Source of the DNA: Candidatus Omnitrophota bacterium
GTDB taxonomy: Bacteria > Omnitrophota > Gorgyraeia > Zapsychrales > Fredricksoniimonadaceae
Length of the DNA stretch: 64,000 nt
Reading direction: 5' to 3'
Assembly (NCBI GenBank): GCA_903959815.1
Contig: CAJBYM010000109.1
Coordinates: forward strand, 2,229 to 66,228
In this document: one piece after another, positions 24,852-35,366 of the stretch
Layout of the letters: every line of letters starts with the position of its first letter
Numbering within the stretch: position 1 is the first letter of the stretch
The notes under the pieces: generated by a model
What the model was told of the DNA's origin: nothing
The model's input: only the letters and a program-made list of their open reading frames with translations
Databases searched by the model: none
Translations under genes and position numbers: made by a program

Positions 24852-24880
24852 AAAAAAGCCCTTGGAAACCAAGGGCTTTT
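24852..24880 (-). terminator. Rho-independent terminator after the DEAD-box helicase gene
   Basis: GCCCTTGG-AAA-CCAAGGGC perfect 8-bp stem flanked by A6/T4, so it can terminate on either strand. Confidence 0.65.
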
Positions 24881-24905: not shown

Positions 24906-26147
24906 TTAACGGAACCGACGACGCCCGCCGCGCGCGAACGACTTGTTCACGAAACTGCGGCCACCGCCACCTGTTGGCCTGCGGCCTGACCCTGCCGCCG
25001 GAGCACGATAAAGCGTATGTGTTTCAACTTCAGGATGCTGCGCCAACGTGATCTGCGAACGCACAATGCGCTCAATAGCCTGCACCTGATCTGCCTGATC
25101 CGGTGTCGCGATCGAAATGGCGCGGCCTTCCATACCCGCACGGCCTGTACGGCCAATGCGATGCACGTAATTTTCAGCGTCATCCGGCAAGTCAAAGTTA
25201 ATGACAAGCTCGATGCCCTTAACGTCGATACCACGTGCGGCAATATCTGTCGCCACAAGCACGCGATAACGCCCGACCTTGAAACCTTCAAGTGCAGCGC
25301 GGCGCTGGGACAAAGACTTATCCGAATGGATCTCAGCGACGCTATGGCCCATCTGTTTGATATCACGATTGAGCTTGTGCGCCCCGTGCTTGGTGCGCGA
25401 GAACAAAAGCACTGATCCACGGTATTGGCCAAGAAGTTTGGCGAGAAGAACTGTTTTCATCTCACGCTTCACCACAAAGATTTCCTGGACCACGCGCTCG
25501 GCAGCCGTGCCCTGGGGTGCGACCTCGATGTTGATCGGAAGCTTCATGTGACGCGACGCCATGGTCATGATATCCCGCGGCATTGTTGCCGAAAAAAGCA
25601 TGGTCTGACGATCTTTAGTAACCTGCTGCAAGATCTGTTCGATCTGCGGTGCAAAACCCATGTCGAACATACGATCCGCTTCATCAAGGACCAAAATACG
25701 CGTCGTATTCAAACGCACAGTTCCACGCTGCATATGATCAATGAGACGACCCGGTGTGGCAATGAGGATACGTGCGCCTCTCTTGATGGCACGCAACTGT
25801 TCTTCCATCGAAGCGCCGCCGATAAGAACCGCCGTCCTTAAACCAAAAGGCACACCGACTTTCTCAATGGTTTCTTCGACCTGGATCGCGAGCTCACGGG
25901 TGGGCACAACGATAAGGCCGTTACCTGGCGCCTGCGCGAGACGCTGGACCATGGGGATCGCAAAAGCAAGGGTCTTTCCCGTGCCGGTCTGCGCAATACC
26001 CATAATGTCCTTGCCTTCAACAGCAAGAGGAATGGCCTTATGCTGAATCGGTGTCGGGACCTTGAACTTCATACGGTCCAAAACCTCGAGAACCTTAGGC
26101 GCAATGCCAAGCCCATAAAACGTTGTTGGTACATTTGTGTTAGTCAT
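24906..26147 (-). CDS. DEAD-box ATP-dependent RNA helicase (RhlE/DeaD-like) with an RG-rich tail
   Basis: AQTGTGKT, VLDEADRMFDMGF, LFSATMP, and a C-terminal GRRPTGGGGR tail. Confidence 0.9.
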   Translation of the reverse strand: MTNTNVPTTFYGLGIAPKVLEVLDRMKFKVPTPIQHKAIPLAVEGKDIMGIAQTGTGKTLAFAIPMVQRLAQAPGNGLIVVPTRELAIQVEETIEKVGVPFGLRTAVLIGGASMEEQLRAIKRGARILIATPGRLIDHMQRGTVRLNTTRILVLDEADRMFDMGFAPQIEQILQQVTKDRQTMLFSATMPRDIMTMASRHMKLPINIEVAPQGTAAERVVQEIFVVKREMKTVLLAKLLGQYRGSVLLFSRTKHGAHKLNRDIKQMGHSVAEIHSDKSLSQRRAALEGFKVGRYRVLVATDIAARGIDVKGIELVINFDLPDDAENYVHRIGRTGRAGMEGRAISIATPDQADQVQAIERIVRSQITLAQHPEVETHTLYRAPAAGSGRRPTGGGGRSFVNKSFARGGRRRFR

Positions 26148-26354
26148 TTCTTGATTCTTCTTTCTTGTTCTTATTTTTTAATTTTTTGTACCTTGCACAC
26201 ATCTGGACACAACAATACGCCAGTTATGCTGTCTTAAAATAGATGCAAGATTCAATTCGAAGGTAATGAGGAGGTGTTCGGAGGTGGGAAACTCGTGTCC
26301 TAATCGCTACCTTAACGCGCACATCCTCCCTTATTCTCCCCAAAATGTCAATGA

Positions 26355-27710
26355 TTATCTTTGACCCACCCCGGAATCAGGATTATCACCCTTCAAAAGT
26401 CTAACAGCCACAACACGTTCCAAAAGAGACCCGCGGGAAGATCCTTCCCCCAGGGAAAGATCGCTCACAACCACCCGGCCTAAAACAGTGGCCACATCCC
26501 CTTGGGGCCCTTTCTCGCGATAAGCCCAGATCGCATGAATGGCATAAAGACGGTCCTTAACCTGACCTAAATAAAGCATAATATGCCCTTTAAGCCGCAG
26601 CAGAACAAGCCCTCCAAGCCCCTGACTAGAGATCAGCTCCAACTTTTCTTTTAAAGAAGCGCCCGCATTAAACTCAGCCAACGACAAACCCGATCGTGCC
26701 TGTTCTGTAGAATTGCGCGGCAGATCCAGCCCCATGGTCGCAAACACCATATGAATAAAACGCGAACAATCCTGATCGCCATGCATATCGCCCCAACCAT
26801 AAGGCGCATCCAGCAATTTAAAAGCCTGCGTGATCACAATCCTGGGCGTATACGGAAGAAAGCCCCTCATAATATCTGTGGGCAAGATAAAACCACTGAC
26901 AAAACGTGCGGTCCCATCCGAATGACGTAAGGGGTACACAATCTCCATAAAACCACGACCCGCTCGCTTAATGACAAAGCGCGATCCCATGCGCGCCACC
27001 GCCACCGCCTTAACCATCGTCGCATCCAAATAGATCGCTGTACGCGCCGCGGTCACGACCGCCATATTCTTCCCCGTTACACTTCTCAACCAGGTTGACT
27101 TATCGCAAAAAGCAATCTCCTCGCGCTTGACCCAACCCGAAGAAATCCCATCTTTGACATACAACCACGATCCATCTGCGCTTTCATGCAAAACAACCAA
27201 GGGAGTCGCCGGATCAAGGCCACTGTTTTGAACCTGGTCAAAATTCACATCCCCCGGCTTATCATAAAGCGGATCATCCGTTGGCAAGAGACGTTGATTC
27301 GTAAAGGCAGATGTGAACGCATACCTGACCCGCACCTGATTTCCCAGAACATCCAGTGCCATGTTCTCGGTCCATGTCGCATAAAGATCCGGCCCTGCAT
27401 TATGACCATCCCGATCAAAAAGTTTCAACACACTCAAATTCATGGCCAGGCCTTCGATCTCCATCTTAAGCTTTTCTCCTGGCCATACAGACGGAAAAAT
27501 ACTCAGATCATCACATAAACCCTGGGCATAAAGCCCTTGATTGAAGGCTACAATCCCTTGAGGATCCATGACAACCCTGTCCGGCAAAGACTGCTGTTGG
27601 ATCCAGTAACCAGGCTCACGCATCGAGGCTGTGACATAAGGAACATCAGCCGCATGGGCGATACGTGCGCTAACAAGAATTATGAAAAGAATCGGCAAAA
27701 TTGTCCGCAT
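26355..27710 (-). CDS. Secreted NlpC/P60 (C40) peptidase with SH3-like domains
   Basis: Signal peptide, a DCSRFIHMVF catalytic-Cys region, and an overall pattern like SH3b-P60 gamma-D-Glu-DAP endopeptidases. Confidence 0.65.
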   Translation of the reverse strand: MRTILPILFIILVSARIAHAADVPYVTASMREPGYWIQQQSLPDRVVMDPQGIVAFNQGLYAQGLCDDLSIFPSVWPGEKLKMEIEGLAMNLSVLKLFDRDGHNAGPDLYATWTENMALDVLGNQVRVRYAFTSAFTNQRLLPTDDPLYDKPGDVNFDQVQNSGLDPATPLVVLHESADGSWLYVKDGISSGWVKREEIAFCDKSTWLRSVTGKNMAVVTAARTAIYLDATMVKAVAVARMGSRFVIKRAGRGFMEIVYPLRHSDGTARFVSGFILPTDIMRGFLPYTPRIVITQAFKLLDAPYGWGDMHGDQDCSRFIHMVFATMGLDLPRNSTEQARSGLSLAEFNAGASLKEKLELISSQGLGGLVLLRLKGHIMLYLGQVKDRLYAIHAIWAYREKGPQGDVATVLGRVVVSDLSLGEGSSRGSLLERVVAVRLLKGDNPDSGVGQR

Positions 27711-28843
27711 AAGATCCCAAAGTATGTTCCCACGATATTGCCCAGGATCGCTAAAAGCAGCCCGACCGAAGCAAGTCCCGGCTCATAGACCGCAGCCACA
27801 ACCGGAGCAGAAGCCACGCCCCCTACATTGGCCTGACTGGCCGCTGCCACCAGGAAAAGCGGTGCGCGTAAAAGGCTGGCCCCTGCCAAAAGAAAACCGG
27901 CGTGCACAAAAATGATCAGGAAGCCTGCTGCAATAAGAATGAACGCCGACCCGACATTGCTGATGCTCGCCTTGGCCCCAATAGCGGTCAAAACAAAATA
28001 AAGAATGTAATACCCGATCTTCGATGCACCGGCCTTCTCTATACGACGGACAGATGTCAACGAAAGTAAGATCCCCAGCATGGACACCACAATGATCGTC
28101 CAGGCATACGGCGAAACAATATCTTTCACGACCGGAAGTCTCGTGCCTATATCTTTAGCCAGCAAACTTCCAACTATGGCAAACGCAAGAACGCTCACCA
28201 CACCACCCGGTGTCAAGCGCACAGTAACGACATCAACCTTCGCGCGCCTGGCCAGATCATCCACAACCTTACGATCCGAACGGTTCCAACGATCAAAACC
28301 CGCCTGCACTCCGACGCACGCAATGAGCATGCCCATCCACACATACGGCACAACCGTATCCACAATGACCATGGGGGCAAAAACCCTGTCCGGCACAGCC
28401 AGCGCTTCTTTGACCGCGATCATATTGGCACTGCCCCCGGTCCATGACGCCGATAAAGCCCCGAACCCGGCCCAGAACTCCGCTCCTACCATATTTTTAA
28501 ACAGACAAAAAGACACGACCGTACCGGCCATGATCCCCGCGCTTCCAATAAAGAACATGGCCAACGCCATACCGCCGAGCTGGATGATCGCCTTCAGATC
28601 GATGACAACTAAAAGTAAGAACAAACTCGCTGGCAAAAGATAGGTTGTGATCATCGACAAGACAGGCGCGCCTGGATCGAGGACACCGGCTGTCGCGGCT
28701 AACATCGGAAGAAAATAGATCCAAAAAACTGGCGGAATAAAATTAAACCACCCACGCGTGCGCTCGTGTTGACTTAAGAACAGTACCAGAACTTCAATGG
28801 CCAAAAGGATAACAATAATAAGGAAGGGGTCATGGATCATCAT
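27680..28843 (-). CDS. DUF819-family polytopic membrane protein
   Basis: About 10 TM helices. Family call is by recall only and is tentative. Confidence 0.55.
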   Translation of the reverse strand: MMIHDPFLIIVILLAIEVLVLFLSQHERTRGWFNFIPPVFWIYFLPMLAATAGVLDPGAPVLSMITTYLLPASLFLLLVVIDLKAIIQLGGMALAMFFIGSAGIMAGTVVSFCLFKNMVGAEFWAGFGALSASWTGGSANMIAVKEALAVPDRVFAPMVIVDTVVPYVWMGMLIACVGVQAGFDRWNRSDRKVVDDLARRAKVDVVTVRLTPGGVVSVLAFAIVGSLLAKDIGTRLPVVKDIVSPYAWTIIVVSMLGILLSLTSVRRIEKAGASKIGYYILYFVLTAIGAKASISNVGSAFILIAAGFLIIFVHAGFLLAGASLLRAPLFLVAAASQANVGGVASAPVVAAVYEPGLASVGLLLAILGNIVGTYFGILCGQFCRFFS

Positions 28844-29913
28844 GGGAGGACAACGCCAATACCCGCGCGTGCACGCGAGAGGTCAAAACATCCTTTCTCA
28901 TCCAGATACGGAGACTTAGCCAGCGGGCCTTTTAGAAAATAGGTCGTATCAAGATCAATGTACTTAAAACATCCCAGTCCCGCCGCCATATGCGCCGAGG
29001 CCGTAACCGCCAAAGCACTTTCCATCATCGCACCGATCATAAGTTCCATCCCTGCCGCCCGCGCCAGACGTGCGATCGCTTCACCTTCCAGCAAACCGCT
29101 TTTCATGGTCTTAACATTGATGGCCGTGACCGCGCGCTCACGCACGGCCCGCACAGTATCGGCCAAAGAACCCACACTCTCGTCGGCACAAACCAAAATC
29201 CCGGACTTGTGAACAGCGCGCGTCACACATTTCAAGCCATCCCAGTCATTCTTGGGAACCGGCTGCTCCACAAGAAGCGGTACAACTTTATTCTTCTTAA
29301 GTTCTTTGAGAAACTTAAGCATCCCGGAAGCAGTAAAACCCTGGTTGGCATCGATCACCATATTCACCCGTGGTGCCGCTTTTCTCACCGCCAGAACACG
29401 CGCCAGATCCAGATCATGATCCTGACCGACCTTCACCTTAAACGTCTTAAATCCCCGACGGGAATAAGCCAGAGCTGACGTTTCAGCCTCTTGCAGGGAT
29501 CCGATGACAATGGTAATGTCCGAGCGCAAAGGAACGGGGCTATTTCCAAAAAGTTTCCATAAAGGGATCTTAAGTGTGCGCGTCCAGGCATCCAGCACCG
29601 CCATTTCCAATGCCGCAAGGCCCGCATGATTCTCGGCAAACTTCTCGCGAAAAGCTCCCAAGAAAGACCTGTGATCAGAAATGTCCTCACCAAGGCTGAC
29701 CGCCGCTGCTTCCTTCAAATTAGAAAAGGTCTTCTCGACAGTCTCCCCGGTGATATGGGTCGCCACAGCGGCTTCGCCCCAACCTTTAACACCGCTTTTA
29801 AGCGTCAAACTAACAAAAACATTCTTAAGCGTATTATGCTGCCCCGTCGCAATACGAAAAGGCGTCGAGAGCGGCGCTTCAACAATATTCACATCCATAT
29901 GTTCAATGATCAT
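28840..29913 (-). CDS. Dipeptide epimerase (L-Ala-D/L-Glu epimerase), enolase superfamily
   Basis: MR/MLE pattern with KVKVG, VDANQG, EQP, and a D-E-D metal-binding arrangement. Confidence 0.8.
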   Translation of the reverse strand: MIIEHMDVNIVEAPLSTPFRIATGQHNTLKNVFVSLTLKSGVKGWGEAAVATHITGETVEKTFSNLKEAAAVSLGEDISDHRSFLGAFREKFAENHAGLAALEMAVLDAWTRTLKIPLWKLFGNSPVPLRSDITIVIGSLQEAETSALAYSRRGFKTFKVKVGQDHDLDLARVLAVRKAAPRVNMVIDANQGFTASGMLKFLKELKKNKVVPLLVEQPVPKNDWDGLKCVTRAVHKSGILVCADESVGSLADTVRAVRERAVTAINVKTMKSGLLEGEAIARLARAAGMELMIGAMMESALAVTASAHMAAGLGCFKYIDLDTTYFLKGPLAKSPYLDEKGCFDLSRARAGIGVVLP

Positions 29914-32117
29914 GCCTTGCTCCCTAAAGCCAGCTCACGCGCCAAACGCTTCACCGTTCCCAGATCTAGTTTACCACTACCTAAGACCGGGATCGCGTCG
30001 ATCCTGAAAAACATCTCAGATTCAGGGATCCATAAATTAGGCAACCCTTCTGCTTTAAGCGCTTCGCGCACCGACGAAATATCAACATCTTTCAATGTCA
30101 GCACAACAAGCTTCTCACCTTTTCTGTCATCCGGAACTGCCGCTACAAGGCACATCGGCTCGGTGGCCTGAACAGCTTTATGAATAGCCTCTTCAATGCG
30201 GATATGCGGGACCATTTCACCTGCGATCTTGCTGAAACGGTTGATGCGGTCCGTGATGGTCACAAACCCGTCATCATCCAAAAATGCGATATCCCCTGTC
30301 TTATACCAACCATCCACAAAAGCTTCTTTTGTTTTCTCGGATTCTTTAAAATAACCGCGCATAACGTTCTGCCCTTTGACAACAAGAAGCCCCTCTTCAT
30401 ACGGACCCAGTACGCGATAAGTTTCAGGATCAACAATCCTCACCGCAACACCAGGCAAAGGATTCCCGATGGTCCCGGGCTTATGCGCTTTTTGCAGAGT
30501 CCCCGAACTGCGATCATCCGGAAAATTCAAGCTGACAATGGGGGATAATTCCGTGCACCCATAACCCTCGAGCGGCATAAAACCAAATTTCTCCATACAA
30601 GCATCCGCAATCACGGCCTTAAGCTTTTCGGCACCAATGATCGTATAACGGATCGTTTTAAAATCACCCGGCTCACACCGCTTAATATAAGCGCTAAGGA
30701 ATGTCGGCGTCGCCATCATGAGGGTCGCCCGATGATTACGAACCATATCACCGACGACTTTCGCATCCAGTGGACTTGGATGATAGACCGCACGCATGGA
30801 ACTCGCCAAAGGCAACCATAAGACAGCCGCAAACCCGAATGAATGAAAAAATGGCAGGATCCCCATGAGCACATCACTAGAGCGGACTTTAAAGCCTTGG
30901 TGAAACCCCTCTAGATTCGCAATAATATTCGCATGCGAAAGCATCACTCCTTTGGGCTGTCCCGTGCTGCCGCTGGTAAAAACAACCGTGACCAGATCGT
31001 CAACACTGCGATACTTCCAGCTTCCGAAAACATAACGGTGTGCGAGAAAAGCAGGCATCAGGAAAACACAAGCCATGGCTTTACAGCGCTGCACAAAACT
31101 TATTTTATCCCAAAGTTCTTCAATAAAAACCCCCTCACACGGAGGCGTGGTCTGTAACTTCTCGAGAAAAGCGCGCGAGGTCACACACACCTTCATGCCG
31201 GTCTGTTCGACCGCACAACGCAGTGCTTCACGACCAGAACTGTAGTTCAAATTCACAACCGGCTTATGCAGGATCGCGACCGCGATATTGGTCACAGCCG
31301 ATGCAACCGACGTCGGTAAAAAAATCCCAACGAACTCCTGGCCACGTGTCAGCTTGGCCAATTGCCGGGATAAAGCATGGGCCACAACAAACGTTTGCCA
31401 GCGGTTAAGGTTCTTGCCGGTTGAATCCGCGATGCACGGTGCAAAAGGCCGCCGCATGACTTCATCAAAGAACAACTCCCCCAGCGTCATCTTTTCTTCC
31501 AAACGGTACCGGAATGCCTGCGCCCCAAGCTCCACGACCTTCTGGCGCACATCAAACACTTTTGTCGACGACAACATGGGCGAGCCAAACATGACGGTCA
31601 CAGGATGCCTCAGCTGACGCGGACGTTTGAAAAAATACTTCCCGCCTTCAAAACTCCAGATGCTGTGCCAGGTACGGTCCAGATATACGGGAATAATAGG
31701 TTCGGAAAGATCCCGCATGATATGTTCAAGCCCGCGATTAAAACGCAAGGTGTTGCCGGTGCGTGACAGCCCGCCCTCAGGGAACATGCATACGAGCTCA
31801 CCTTCTTTGATCACTTCACGGACCGCGGCAAATGTACGGATGATCGTTTTAGGCGGATCCTGGGGAGACAATGGAAAGGCTCCGGCCGCACGGCATAACG
31901 AGCGCAACCAGGGATTATTATAAACCTCACGGCTGGTGACAAACTTGACCGGACGATCAATGGAAGCGGCGAGAAAAAGAACATCAATGAATGACAAATG
32001 GTTCGCGACAATCAGCGCGCCACCAGAAGCAGGCACCAGGGAATGATCAATGATATGCAAGCGATAAAAGGTACGGACAACCCCTCGGGCCAACGACTGA
32101 ACAAAGGACATCCCCAC
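29910..32117 (-). CDS. aas: Bifunctional lysophospholipid acyltransferase/acyl-ACP synthetase (Aas-like)
   Basis: N-terminal PlsC HX4D motif (HLSFIDVL) and a C-terminal AMP-binding domain FTSGSTGQPKGV. Confidence 0.8.
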   Translation of the reverse strand: MGMSFVQSLARGVVRTFYRLHIIDHSLVPASGGALIVANHLSFIDVLFLAASIDRPVKFVTSREVYNNPWLRSLCRAAGAFPLSPQDPPKTIIRTFAAVREVIKEGELVCMFPEGGLSRTGNTLRFNRGLEHIMRDLSEPIIPVYLDRTWHSIWSFEGGKYFFKRPRQLRHPVTVMFGSPMLSSTKVFDVRQKVVELGAQAFRYRLEEKMTLGELFFDEVMRRPFAPCIADSTGKNLNRWQTFVVAHALSRQLAKLTRGQEFVGIFLPTSVASAVTNIAVAILHKPVVNLNYSSGREALRCAVEQTGMKVCVTSRAFLEKLQTTPPCEGVFIEELWDKISFVQRCKAMACVFLMPAFLAHRYVFGSWKYRSVDDLVTVVFTSGSTGQPKGVMLSHANIIANLEGFHQGFKVRSSDVLMGILPFFHSFGFAAVLWLPLASSMRAVYHPSPLDAKVVGDMVRNHRATLMMATPTFLSAYIKRCEPGDFKTIRYTIIGAEKLKAVIADACMEKFGFMPLEGYGCTELSPIVSLNFPDDRSSGTLQKAHKPGTIGNPLPGVAVRIVDPETYRVLGPYEEGLLVVKGQNVMRGYFKESEKTKEAFVDGWYKTGDIAFLDDDGFVTITDRINRFSKIAGEMVPHIRIEEAIHKAVQATEPMCLVAAVPDDRKGEKLVVLTLKDVDISSVREALKAEGLPNLWIPESEMFFRIDAIPVLGSGKLDLGTVKRLARELALGSKA

Positions 32118-32122
32118 CTCGC

Positions 32123-33391
32123 TTACGCTTGTTCTTTTTTGACTCCGGATCCGCCGGGCCCATCCCGTAATAATTTAATATGAAAGACCGCACCTTCCCC
32201 GACCTGACTCACAGCGTTGATCGTTCCTTGATGCTTGGTAATAATGCCATGCACCACCGAAAGCCCAAGGCCAGTCCCCTGTCCCACAGATTTGGTCGTA
32301 AAGAAAGGGTCAAATATCTTGGAAATAACATCCGGCGCGATCCCTTGACCATTATCGCTGATCTCGATATGAACTTCTTTCCCATGGGGCCATGTCTTGA
32401 TCTTGATCGTTCCATTTGTTTCGATCGCCTGGGCCGCATTTGATAATAAGTTCATGAACACCTGCAACATTTGCTGTTCCCTGAAACATACCAGAGGAAG
32501 ATGCCCATACTCACGCACCAACTTGATCTTATATTTTAACTCTCCCGCCATGATATCGATCGCACGATCAATGCAAGCGTGCAAATCCCCGTATTCAAGA
32601 GTGCCTTCTGTGGGATGCGCAAAAACCTTCAGGTCCTGAACGATCTTCTTGATCCTCTGCGCACCCTGGGCTGTCTCGCAGATCAGGACCGGCAGATCTT
32701 CCATGATCTCGCCAAGTTTCTTACTCTGGTCCTGGGGTAATTCTTTGATCGTCGAAAGATACGGTGCAACAATGCGAAAACATTTTTGAACCTGACTTTG
32801 ATATTCCTGGAACATATCAAGATTGGAAATAATATACGCCGTAGGATTATTGATCTCGTGGGCTATGCCTGCGGCTAACTGGCCCAGGGACGCCATTTTT
32901 TCTGATTGGATCAACCGGCTCTGCAGGGCCACCAGTTTCTCATAGGCCGACCTGAGTTCCTCGGTCGTACGCTTGATATCCGTCATGTCACGGATAATAC
33001 CAACGATACATTGTTCCCCGGAAGGCCCCGTATAAATGGTTTTCTTTGTAATGATGACCCTGCGCGAACCGGTGCCATCTGTAAAGAACTCCTCGTTAAC
33101 ATTCTCTTGCCCGGTCTGGAAAACCTCTTCATCTTTCTGCCAAAAAACATCCGCTTCTTTTTTGGGAAAGAAATCATAATCCGATTTACCAATGAGCTTG
33201 GAACTTGGATGACCCATAAAATCACAAAACGCCTGGTTGAGCAGGATCCAGCGGTGCTTGCGGTCTTTTACAAAAAGAGGGTCTGCGACGGAATTAATGA
33301 TCTGTTTTAAATATTCAGATGTGTTTTCCACTGCTTCCGTTACCGCCCTTTGGTGGGAACATGGCCCATGCATGCTTCGACAACAACACAC
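32123..33391 (-). CDS. Cytoplasmic PAS sensor histidine kinase
   Basis: PAS domain, H-box AHEINNP and HATPase_c. The true start may be an internal M (33373). Confidence 0.85.
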   Translation of the reverse strand: MCCCRSMHGPCSHQRAVTEAVENTSEYLKQIINSVADPLFVKDRKHRWILLNQAFCDFMGHPSSKLIGKSDYDFFPKKEADVFWQKDEEVFQTGQENVNEEFFTDGTGSRRVIITKKTIYTGPSGEQCIVGIIRDMTDIKRTTEELRSAYEKLVALQSRLIQSEKMASLGQLAAGIAHEINNPTAYIISNLDMFQEYQSQVQKCFRIVAPYLSTIKELPQDQSKKLGEIMEDLPVLICETAQGAQRIKKIVQDLKVFAHPTEGTLEYGDLHACIDRAIDIMAGELKYKIKLVREYGHLPLVCFREQQMLQVFMNLLSNAAQAIETNGTIKIKTWPHGKEVHIEISDNGQGIAPDVISKIFDPFFTTKSVGQGTGLGLSVVHGIITKHQGTINAVSQVGEGAVFHIKLLRDGPGGSGVKKEQA

Positions 33392-33915
33392 TTTTCTTTC
33401 CAGAACGAGAATGCAACTTCCTGTTTCTTGAAAAGATTATAATCAAACTGCGCGCCTTCAAGAACCGCATTTTTATACTTATACGGAGCAGACAAGGTGA
33501 GGTCCGCAAGATCCAGCGCCAGAATTTGCTTCTTCAAATTCTCTGCGATCACCTGACACAAATCACCAACGACATCCAGACAGGCCTGTTCATTCTCAGA
33601 TTCACTGGCCGAACGACCAAAAGCCTTGAAAAGCCGCTCCACCAGATCTTCTTTAAAATACAAAATGAATGTCCCGACAGCATCTTTAGCCTCAAGGTGC
33701 TTCGGCGACAGATAATAATTAACGATCGCCACATAGGCCGGAGCATTGAACTTTTCCATAGGAAAAAGCCGCATCCTGCCGTCATATTCAATGATATCTT
33801 TCTCACCCGCAACAGGTTCGGCCGAAGGAGCGACATGACACATCTGTTTGAACGTGTCCTCAACGACGCTGATGATCATGGTGCTCAAAGCTTTATTGTC
33901 TAATTTGGTAGCCAT
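33340..33915 (-). CDS. CheX-like (CheC/CheX/FliY phosphatase fold) protein
   Basis: DVVGDLCQVIAENLKK resembles the CheX E..N motif region. The start is moved to ATG 33915. Tentative. Confidence 0.45.
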   Translation of the reverse strand: MATKLDNKALSTMIISVVEDTFKQMCHVAPSAEPVAGEKDIIEYDGRMRLFPMEKFNAPAYVAIVNYYLSPKHLEAKDAVGTFILYFKEDLVERLFKAFGRSASESENEQACLDVVGDLCQVIAENLKKQILALDLADLTLSAPYKYKNAVLEGAQFDYNLFKKQEVAFSFWKEKCVVVEACMGHVPTKGR

Positions 33916-33985: not shown

Positions 33986-34010
33986 AAAAAGGGGCCAGAC
34001 GGCCCCTTTT
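33986..34010. terminator. Terminator hairpin after the porin gene
   Basis: AAAAA-GGGGCC-agac-GGCCCC-TTTT. Confidence 0.55.
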
Positions 34011-34034: not shown

Positions 34035-35366
34035 TCAAAACTTATAGATGACCGCCGACATGATACGGTTCGCGTCACCCTTGCTGCCATCAACCCACTC
34101 CGTCTTAAAATACTGATACTCAAGACCGACCTGCAATTCCTTGCTCAGGCTATATTTGATATTGGTATAGGTCGTCGTATTGTATTCGTAAACATTCGAC
34201 GCATCCGAAGTTGTGCCAACCCCCGGAGCAGCAACAGGATTAATAAACGCATCATCATTGACCATGTCAATCCCGGCCCCTAGGTTCATCTCGACTTTCT
34301 TGATCGGATTATACGTCAACTCTGCAAATCCGCCTTTAACACGAAAAGGCTTCTTATCCAAACCGCTTGCCAAATAAGAAGTCATGCCCAGCGTACTACC
34401 CCCCAAAAAGTCATCCAACTTGGCACCACTGAAGCCTTCGGCCTTGAACGCCAACCAATCAGTCATTTTGAGCGTCATGCCAAAAGCCACCGCCCATAAT
34501 GAATGATCCTGGTCACCCGACGCTTCGACTTCACCTAACAACCCACTCACACCAAATGTCGCGGGCATGCCCATGATCTTGGTCTCATAACCCGTATATG
34601 TGGCCAAGACAGGGACTCCTGAATTCTCATTGGTAACATCATCTGTATCCAAGATGCCGGTCTTGCTGGTCAATTTCCCGCCCCAGACATCGCCCCATTT
34701 GTTAACAATGTGAACCTGCGGATGGCGATAACCCACATTACCCTGCCCCCATAAAATATCCGGATTCAATATACTCGGATTGATCGGCGCGAAAATATCC
34801 CAATTCTGGCCCGCATTAACAGCCCATTTCGGATAATCCAGCTGCACATAGGCATGCCTTAAACGCGGCGTATACGTCGCAGTCTGCGAATTCGCAAAAT
34901 CTATTTCGATCTTGCCGCTGACCTTTCCCCCGTCCTCAAGGTCCGGCCCCTTAACATTAAATCCAAGGCGTGTATCATTCCCGGCCATCCCGAACTCACT
35001 CTGACTGCTACCATTTTCCTTGGGTGCGACTCTGGGCGCATTGCTACTGGCCATATCAGAATCCGCATAAGACCCCTGGGCCATGATAAAACCATACATC
35101 TCAACATCCAACTTGGTCTTCAAGAAATTCACTGCAGGTGTCGCCGCCGCAGGAGCAGCCGCAACCTGGGCAGTCGCCGCAGGCATTGCAGGTTTTTCCT
35201 TAAGCGCCATTACTTCTGCTTTTAAGGATGCATTCTCTCTTTCAAGAGCCTCAACACGCTTGAGGATATCATCGAGCGTAGCCTGGGCACATGCAGGCAA
35301 GGCAAACCCCACGGTACAAATGCCAACCATGATCAATGCCAGAAGCCTTTTCATGAGTTTCGCCAT
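34035..35366 (-). CDS. Outer membrane porin with an N-terminal coiled coil (DcaP-like)
   Basis: Signal peptide, heptad coiled coil (LDDILKRVEALERENASLKAEVMAL), beta-barrel body, C-terminal aromatic residue. Confidence 0.6.
   Translation of the reverse strand: MAKLMKRLLALIMVGICTVGFALPACAQATLDDILKRVEALERENASLKAEVMALKEKPAMPAATAQVAAAPAAATPAVNFLKTKLDVEMYGFIMAQGSYADSDMASSNAPRVAPKENGSSQSEFGMAGNDTRLGFNVKGPDLEDGGKVSGKIEIDFANSQTATYTPRLRHAYVQLDYPKWAVNAGQNWDIFAPINPSILNPDILWGQGNVGYRHPQVHIVNKWGDVWGGKLTSKTGILDTDDVTNENSGVPVLATYTGYETKIMGMPATFGVSGLLGEVEASGDQDHSLWAVAFGMTLKMTDWLAFKAEGFSGAKLDDFLGGSTLGMTSYLASGLDKKPFRVKGGFAELTYNPIKKVEMNLGAGIDMVNDDAFINPVAAPGVGTTSDASNVYEYNTTTYTNIKYSLSKELQVGLEYQYFKTEWVDGSKGDANRIMSAVIYKF

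Follow-up and report, generated by a model that had tools for sequence, protein, structure and literature searches.

A conserved epimerase-DUF819 gene pair as a candidate cassette for murein-dipeptide salvage in Omnitrophota and other bacteria

We analysed a window of 64,000 nucleotides from a Candidatus Omnitrophota bacterium (assembly GCA_903959815.1, contig CAJBYM010000109.1, positions 2,229 to 66,228), which carries on its minus strand a gene for a dipeptide epimerase directly followed by a gene for a membrane protein of the DUF819 family. In related loci, the conserved unit is this epimerase-DUF819 pair, with an SH3b-NlpC/P60 peptidase (P60) as a frequent third member. Judging from the sequences, we regard it as somewhat probable that the two-gene cassette, often with the peptidase attached, salvages a murein dipeptide, most likely L-Ala-γ-D-Glu. 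Salvage of peptidoglycan peptides has been worked out mainly in Escherichia coli and Bacillus, with uptake via AmpG or Opp/Dpp-type systems; to our knowledge, inner-membrane uptake of the breakdown products in other phyla is largely unknown.

Gene order in the window and in related genomes

Four minus-strand open reading frames (ORFs) follow each other in the order Aas-like gene, MR_MLE-type dipeptide epimerase gene, DUF819 gene and gene for an SH3b-NlpC/P60 peptidase with a signal peptide. A first-pass annotation of this DNA had reported these four genes with overlaps of 4 nt (Aas/epimerase), 4 nt (epimerase/DUF819) and 31 nt (DUF819/P60), which was borne out by the ORF coordinates as well as by public gene calls made independently on the identical contig, with the same four genes and overlaps. 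A Pfam search of the four proteins recovered every domain that had been named and confirmed their identities as Aas-like, epimerase, DUF819 and SH3-NlpC/P60. The first two junctions are ATGA stop/start overlaps; the start of the DUF819 gene reads ATG-ATG, and with the second ATG as start the overlap with the epimerase gene is only 1 nt.

The first-pass annotation had asked for neighbourhood statistics on DUF819 beside such epimerases. For this survey, a DUF819 alignment was scanned against one genome per species, and the six-frame ORFs of the 80 loci returned were searched with the proteins of the window. The orthologous clade comprises 28 loci with a DUF819 protein at least ~44% identical, from Omnitrophota, Planctomycetota/Phycisphaerae, Geobacterales and one Smithellaceae, and the distant set comprises 52 loci at 32-40% identity, from Bacteroidota, Gammaproteobacteria, Balneolales, Acidobacteriota and others. 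A protein identical to the DUF819 protein of the window is encoded on metagenome contigs in ENA; its closest named relatives were found in Candidatus Omnitrophica/Omnitrophota metagenome-assembled genomes, followed by Geobacteraceae at ~65% identity. An epimerase homologue was present within one gene of DUF819 in 23 of the 28 orthologous loci (immediately upstream and on the same strand in 22, one gene away in one), compared to 3 of the 52 distant ones (Fisher p = 3e-12 for loci that are not phylogenetically independent). Among the 23 linked loci, the two genes share a 4-nt ATGA overlap in 11 cases and a 1-nt overlap in 2, and are separated by a gap of <= 17 nt in 4.

Homologues of the SH3_6-NlpC/P60 peptidase were part of the cluster in 13/28 orthologous and 0/52 distant loci (Fisher p = 1e-7, the loci again being not independent). 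The peptidase gene lies downstream of DUF819 in Omnitrophota and upstream of the epimerase gene in Planctomycetota-type loci, and it is absent in Geobacterales, where the epimerase-DUF819 pair occurs without P60 and without Aas. This persistence of the pair while P60 moves argues for selection on the pair itself. The other genes around the orthologous loci did not recur (maximum 3/127 genes); neither LD-carboxypeptidase nor amidase nor dipeptidase genes were recurrent there. The neighbours of distant DUF819 genes were heterogeneous, the commonest family being DUF4369 (8/50). Linkage to the epimerase characterises a single DUF819 clade and not the whole family. The recurring context of epimerase, DUF819 and P60 that had been proposed from the window therefore holds for the orthologous clade but not for distant members, and DUF819 homologues in unrelated contexts, named beforehand as evidence that would speak against it, are the rule in the family at large but not in this clade.

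DUF819 as a credible transporter

The DUF819 protein of the window (positions 27680..28843, minus strand, 387 aa) is predicted to be an inner-membrane secondary transporter of the elevator type and is a candidate dipeptide importer. It matched PF05684 with 273.9 bits (cutoff 27) over profile positions 3-377 of 379. A structural model calculated with AlphaFold2 from a 108-sequence alignment of two clades reached a predicted local distance difference test score (pLDDT) of 91; it replaced an earlier run on a shallow alignment of 28 sequences (pLDDT 62), which was not used. The folds nearest to the model were AspT, CitS and OadB, of elevator type, and the model itself has an elevator-type fold with two reentrant hairpins, at the tips of which the invariant DUF819 motifs are placed. 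This result agrees with a published classification of DUF819 in the cation:proton antiporter/anion transporter (CPA/AT) group (PMC8396727). The model makes a transport function of DUF819 credible, AspT and CitS being the elevator folds most like it. Searching PDB sequences with the DUF819 profile gave only noise (E >= 0.26). In the literature mentioning the family, we found no published function for any DUF819 member and no link between DUF819 and peptidoglycan, an association that curated databases may already carry; a 2024 review of muropeptide transporters was not among this literature.

Sequence features of the dipeptide epimerase

The epimerase (28840..29913, minus strand, 357 aa) lacks a signal peptide and is predicted to be a cytoplasmic dipeptide epimerase of the enolase superfamily, muconate-lactonizing enzyme (MLE) subgroup, in which it belongs to a distinct clade. 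Both of its domains (MR_MLE_N, PF02746, 47.3 bits; MR_MLE_C, PF13378, 132.6 bits) scored above the cutoff, and its best NCBIfam match was the L-Ala-D/L-Glu epimerase NF041118 with 240.4 bits at a cutoff of 500. In the PDB, it matched 3S5S, 3U9I and 3IK4, in this order, and then YkfB (1JPM/1TKK) at 2e-49. When the protein was aligned to dipeptide-epimerase structures, the KxK motif was found to be kept (FKVKVG, aligned to LKIKVG of YkfB), and NVKTMK (second Lys), DANQG, VEQP and ADES could be read; in YkfB-type enzymes, these motifs hold the acid/base lysines and the metal ligands. The DxD motif (IDLD, aligned to FDFD of YkfB and ADLD of YcjG) is kept in 22/22 linked epimerases.

The DUF819-linked epimerases are marked by the motifs PFR(I/T)AxGQH and ATHITGET, which neither YkfB nor YcjG has. 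Almost every member carries a positively charged residue in the 20s loop, namely Arg20 of the PFR motif or, where Arg20 is missing, Lys23, and an acidic C-terminal residue of the dipeptide substrate is plausible. Dipeptide epimerases with diverse specificities have reportedly been described by Lukk and coworkers in 2012. Within Omnitrophota, three loci (L026, L029 and L033) have an epimerase with PFSTAKGQH or PFRTAKGQH in place of PFRIATGQH, and in L026 and L029 the epimerase gene lies ~410 nt from DUF819; these three epimerases possibly form a sub-clade with altered specificity.

A lysin-type NlpC/P60 peptidase

The peptidase (26355..27710, minus strand, 451 aa) consists of SH3_6 (PF12913) and NLPC_P60 (PF00877) domains and is a predicted secreted γ-D-Glu-meso-diaminopimelate (γ-D-Glu-mDAP) endopeptidase of the DvLysin type. 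A signal peptidase I (SPase-I) signal peptide could be read from the sequence as MRTILPILFIILVSARIAHA, with ADVP following the cleavage site. Since only the ATG at 27710 gives this canonical signal peptide, the 31-nt overlap with the DUF819 gene is credible. The best solved relative was DvLysin (3M1U, E 4e-32), with YkfC (3H41) at only E 1.2e-3. The motifs YGWG, QDCS, PRNS and GH as well as the third His are kept, and with them the Cys-His-His triad.

DvLysin cleaves the γ-D-Glu-mDAP bond in peptidoglycan, tracheal cytotoxin, MurNAc-tetrapeptide (MurNAc, N-acetylmuramic acid) and free tetrapeptide; it has Ala211 and Asn351, and the exchange A211Y alone turns it into a recycling enzyme, as described in PMC4600125. 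In the P60 of the window, the equivalents of Ala211 and Asn351 are Ser and Asn, respectively, a pair that corresponds to an open S3 site. Among 15 other module-linked P60s, the Ala211 position was Ser or Ala in 15/15 and the Asn351 position was Asn in 11 and Asp in 4; a clear signal peptide or likely lipobox was seen in ~10/15, and 3/15 were not assessable with our crude start-finder. The YkfC-type pair of Tyr (SH3b1) and Asp (NlpC/P60), which enforces a free N-terminal L-Ala, is not present in the P60 of the window. By its residues, P60 is a lysin-type, DvLysin-like enzyme and not a YkfC-type recycling enzyme. The role in murein-peptide recycling given to it by the first-pass annotation needs correction in this respect. 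In four loci with P60 upstream of the epimerase (L018, L020, L024 and L028), the peptidase has Asp at the Asn351 position together with Ser at the Ala211 position and is, as read from these two residues, halfway toward the recycling-enzyme signature.

Proposed pathway and points that weigh against it

In the pathway that we propose, P60 would cut the γ-D-Glu-mDAP bond of periplasmic stem peptides, either free or on muropeptides or the sacculus, as suggested by its homology to DvLysin and its active-site motifs. Together with an amidase encoded elsewhere, this would yield L-Ala-γ-D-Glu in the periplasm. DUF819 would then import the dipeptide as an ion-coupled elevator, to which its fold, membrane location and conserved adjacency as well as the logic of the compartments point. 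In the cytoplasm, the epimerase, going by its family membership, would convert the dipeptide to L-Ala-L-Glu, from which a housekeeping dipeptidase would release L-Ala and L-Glu. With an exported peptidase and a cytoplasmic epimerase, this scheme calls for a carrier between the two, and the partner always joined to the epimerase gene encodes the candidate carrier. For the same reason, the dipeptide product is a more probable cargo than the tripeptide L-Ala-γ-D-Glu-diaminopimelate (L-Ala-γ-D-Glu-DAP) that had been suggested at first; the idea of DUF819 as a transporter is kept, with a different cargo. In this organism, the cassette would belong to a six-gene unit, with genes for a CheX-like protein and a PAS histidine kinase first and the Aas-like gene, devoid of a major facilitator superfamily (MFS) domain, between kinase and epimerase. 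Gene order, overlaps, domains, the export signal, the neighbourhood statistics and the fold are what the analysis shows; all of the catalysis and transport, the choice of dipeptide and the way in which it moves are inferred. As a more specific and tentative proposal, which we hold to be somewhat less likely than not, this DUF819 clade may be a dedicated, epimerase-coupled L-Ala-γ-D-Glu importer that replaces Opp/Dpp-type ATP-binding cassette (ABC) uptake in Omnitrophota, Planctomycetota and Geobacterales.

Several observations weigh against dipeptide salvage by this cassette. Five of the 28 orthologous loci have no epimerase, two of them on contigs that end upstream, and all 28 represent one DUF819 clade, so that the counts are not independent events. 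The likeness of the fold to AspT and CitS fixes neither the substrate nor the direction of transport. The epimerase stayed below both Ala-Glu cutoffs, that of NF041118 as given above and that of NF011708 (91.3 vs 343), its closest matches in the PDB (3S5S, 3U9I, 3IK4) come from structural genomics, and, in the alignment, it has Gly and not Arg at the position of Arg24 of B. subtilis YkfB, a residue that contacts the γ-carboxylate of Glu, with the conserved Arg20 or Lys23 in the same loop. Since P60 is of lysin type, it could act mainly in remodelling of the wall rather than in salvage. Finally, the amidase and the dipeptidase required by the pathway are both missing from the cluster.

Alternative explanations

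DUF819 might carry another solute, be it mDAP or mDAP-D-Ala released by P60 or free D-/L-glutamate, or it might export the product of the epimerase. Such cargo would suit its nearest folds, AspT and CitS, which carry single amino acids or small carboxylates, and its Pfam clan, which includes the glutamate:Na+ symporter family; moreover, mDAP is a costly product of P60 action (PMC9928106). We nevertheless hold this to be rather unlikely, as the invariant partner of DUF819 is the epimerase and not P60, the pair with its stop/start overlap persists without P60, and a dipeptide epimerase would not profit from imported mDAP or free Glu. It is also conceivable that the cassette scavenges another dipeptide with a D-amino acid from the environment and not from murein, and that P60, as an autolysin or an enzyme of wall remodelling, has only the operon in common with it. 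The distinct 20s-loop motif of the epimerase clade and its scores below the Ala-Glu equivalog cutoffs would fit this, as would the lysin-type residues of P60 and its absence from more than half of the orthologous loci. We find this unlikely, however, since the one gene that recurs as a third member encodes a γ-D-Glu-mDAP endopeptidase, the positive charge kept in the specificity loop suits a substrate with an acidic C-terminal residue, and the pairing of enzymes is the same as in the YkfB/YkfC and BT1313/BT1314 clusters (PMC4600125).

The first-pass annotation had seen in the four genes a coordinated envelope-recycling module linking lysophospholipid reacylation by Aas with the processing of murein peptides, and had taken DUF819 as the possible importer of the L-Ala-γ-D-Glu-DAP tripeptide. 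Apart from the 4-nt overlap of the Aas and epimerase genes, this is favoured by the order Aas-epimerase-DUF819 in two further loci, L092 (Aas 82% identical) and L012 (67%). In another locus (L089:1510-6894), a 60%-identical MFS-less Aas is encoded upstream of a YgiQ-type radical S-adenosylmethionine gene (Radical_SAM_N/DUF3362) and an SH3_6-NlpC/P60 gene; this Aas gene, one gene from P60 and beside BacA and Peptidase_S11, hints at a looser Aas/cell-envelope neighbourhood, and neither epimerase nor DUF819 is found there. Against the proposal, the modules of L006/L007 (DUF819 72% identical) and L008 (69%) have no Aas, the epimerase gene following UbiA and a small ORF in the former and coming right after the kinase gene in the latter, and Aas is likewise missing from the module in every other orthologous locus; MFS-less Aas relatives at 51-56% identity lie in unrelated contexts, and Geobacterales keep the epimerase-DUF819 pair without P60 or Aas. 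In addition, the periplasmic P60 would remove DAP outside the cell, and the tripeptide is not the expected cargo. We read the position of Aas next to the module as a lineage-specific gene order. Coexpression of Aas with the module in this organism is likely, but a coordinated lipid-plus-murein module is weakly supported, because the adjacency is confined to close relatives of the window, and we regard the four-gene envelope-recycling module with tripeptide import as very unlikely.

Properties of the Aas-like protein

The Aas-like gene (29910..32111, minus strand) encodes a predicted bifunctional acyltransferase/acyl-acyl carrier protein synthetase (PF01553 and PF00501) without the LplT (MFS) domain. 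Its start could be the GTG at 32117 (735 aa) or the ATG at 32111 (733 aa); the latter is more likely, as it is preceded by GAGG and is also the choice of public gene callers. The protein aligned to positions 413-1144 of the LplT-Aas fusion model PRK08633 and to residues 413-1135 of the fusion homologue P0131. The motifs HX4D, FPEG, SGSTGQPKG, GYGCTE, YKTGD and GSGK are intact (at residues 38, 110, 380, 516, 603 and 711), and the scores lie below the NCBIfam equivalog cutoffs of both the fusion model (885.7 vs 1221) and E. coli-type Aas (326.4 vs 886). No LplT-like or other MFS gene was found in the window, the upstream neighbour of Aas being the histidine kinase gene. Most relatives at <= 61% identity are MFS fusions of ~1135 aa annotated as LplT-Aas, and the MFS-less group (733-746 aa) is nested among these fusions, with few intermediates of 870-940 aa (proteins P0121-P0240). 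This pattern suggests that the flippase domain was recently lost, or became separated, in this lineage of Omnitrophota. A metagenome scan with patterns from the single Aas sequence, which were too specific, returned one unrelated match of 22% identity. We also considered DUF819 as a substitute lysophospholipid flippase and rejected this, as DUF819 orthologues of 65-72% identity accompany the epimerase in loci that have no Aas.

Transcription unit and flanking genes

The operon had originally been drawn with four genes. These stand, yet the unit is probably larger and comprises six genes, with a CheX-like ORF and a PAS histidine kinase gene upstream of Aas, given the tight spacing (-34, +11, -4, -4 and -31 nt along the block) and the fact that the only strong terminators flank this larger block. 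The kinase (32123..33373, minus strand; Pfam PAS_4, HisKA and HATPase_c) is a soluble sensor histidine kinase, the gene of which ends 11 nt before the ATG of Aas; no response regulator gene is adjacent to it. The probable first gene of the operon, ORF191 (33340..33915, minus strand, 191 aa), overlaps the start of the kinase gene by 34 nt and is weakly CheX-like, with a sub-threshold match to PF13690 (E 2.9e-5, 24.5 bits at a cutoff of 27). The kinase gene also precedes the module in L092, with Aas, and in L008, without Aas. In L008, phmmer found an ORF191 homologue at the same position, where it likewise heads the module; in L092, a 212-aa gene without Pfam match takes this position.

Independent promoters and terminators between the genes had been named as evidence that would speak against a single operon. 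Promoter-like and terminator-like matches in the region occurred at chance rate (11 vs 11.0 and 15 vs 13.8 in shuffled sequence, respectively), only the two flanking hairpins were convincing, and spacing and signal scan left no terminators and no room for promoters between the genes; promoters inside coding sequence may exist within the six-gene unit. A Shine-Dalgarno sequence is recognisable before Aas and the epimerase and none before DUF819 and P60, which fits translation of the latter two by coupling. The packing of the genes is consistent with the translational coupling that had been deduced from the overlaps.

Upstream, the unit is bounded by a strong terminator-like hairpin (33987..34010, minus strand; 10-bp stem with 6 GC pairs, then a T-run), the strongest of the region, which follows a gene for a porin-like protein (Porin_4, 34035-35366) and lies in the 119-nt gap between the stop of the porin gene and the start of ORF191. 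After its signal peptide, the porin-like protein has an N-terminal coiled-coil or leucine-zipper-like segment and an Ala/Pro-rich linker. Downstream, P60 is followed after a gap of 207 nt (26148..26354, minus strand) by a gene for a CshA/RhlE-like DEAD-box RNA helicase (24906-26147, minus strand). The gap holds no recognisable terminator; its fold was not more stable than those of shuffled sequences (z = -1.05), and an Rfam scan of the whole window, this gap included, gave no family and identified no riboswitch or leader. The next clear transcription stop is the strong terminator-like hairpin after the helicase gene (24854..24880, minus strand; 12-bp stem, then a T-run). The synteny of P60 and DEAD-box genes is kept in L006/L007, L008 and L012, and the helicase gene may be transcribed by read-through from the module or possess a long leader of its own. 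Over the whole window, GC skew was negative in all 2-kb bins (-0.10 to -0.24), and the minus strand carries ~83% of the called coding sequence (51/61 rough gene calls); this very strong strand and purine bias is sustained across the 64 kb.

Significance and comparison with known systems

DUF819 is a large family without assigned function, which has plant members besides bacterial and archaeal ones. With the cross-phylum gene coupling and the confident structural model as its basis, uptake of D-Glu-containing dipeptides is a specific and cheaply testable hypothesis for this family. If true, it would reveal a new class of murein-fragment transporter and provide the first DUF819 substrate and a foothold for the bacterial, archaeal and plant members. 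The Aas part matters less, since it appears to be a local feature of gene order in one Omnitrophota lineage.

As elevator-type CPA/AT carriers, the aspartate:alanine antiporter AspT (8Y1X) and the Na+/citrate symporter CitS (5A1S) have the folds nearest to DUF819, which differs from them by a sequence identity of only 9-15%, by its separate Pfam family PF05684 and by the lack of the extra domain of AspT (387 aa vs 543). The M15 family of metallopeptidases includes enzymes acting on D-amino-acid-containing peptides. As an independent parallel to the module, in the prpC-acnD region of Neisseria meningitidis, a DUF819 gene stands directly beside a gene of this family, a pair on which no functional work is reported (PMC12671195); the partner is a metallopeptidase there and not an epimerase. 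The Aas-like protein shares with the LplT-Aas system the PlsC-type HX4D acyltransferase and an acyl-acyl carrier protein synthetase domain with all adenylation motifs, but it lacks an MFS flippase, be it fused or adjacent.

DvLysin of Desulfovibrio vulgaris (DVU_0896) resembles the P60 of the window in its aligned SH3b1-SH3b2-NlpC/P60 architecture, in its export, in the small residue at 211 and Asn at 351, and in the motifs YGWG, xDCS, PRNS and GH. In contrast to DvLysin, P60 carries an SPase-I signal peptide in place of a lipobox and reads Q-D-C-S for R-D-C-S, and the N-terminal c-clip region of DvLysin was not aligned to it by phmmer. The parts of PMC4600125 used here describe no operon of DvLysin with an epimerase. 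According to the same paper, an epimerase is paired with a γ-D-Glu-diamino-acid peptidase in ykfB/ykfC, BT1313/BT1314 and, in terms of function, ycjG/mpaA of E. coli, and the chemistry proposed for these clusters leads from the stem peptide via L-Ala-D-Glu to L-Ala-L-Glu. By analogy, the pathway proposed here would be a variant of this known YkfB/YkfC-type pathway, with DUF819 in the transporter slot as the new element. The module is like ykfABCD of B. subtilis, BT1313-BT1314 of Bacteroides and mpaA-ycjG of E. coli in that an enolase-superfamily epimerase is encoded beside a peptidase. It differs from them in that the peptidase is of DvLysin type (Ser/Asn), and neither of YkfC type (Tyr/Asp) nor a zinc amidase such as MpaA, and in that the epimerase belongs to a separate clade with loop motifs of its own. 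Furthermore, the LD-carboxypeptidase YkfA and an ABC/Opp permease have no counterpart in the module, where the candidate secondary carrier DUF819 takes the place of the transporter.

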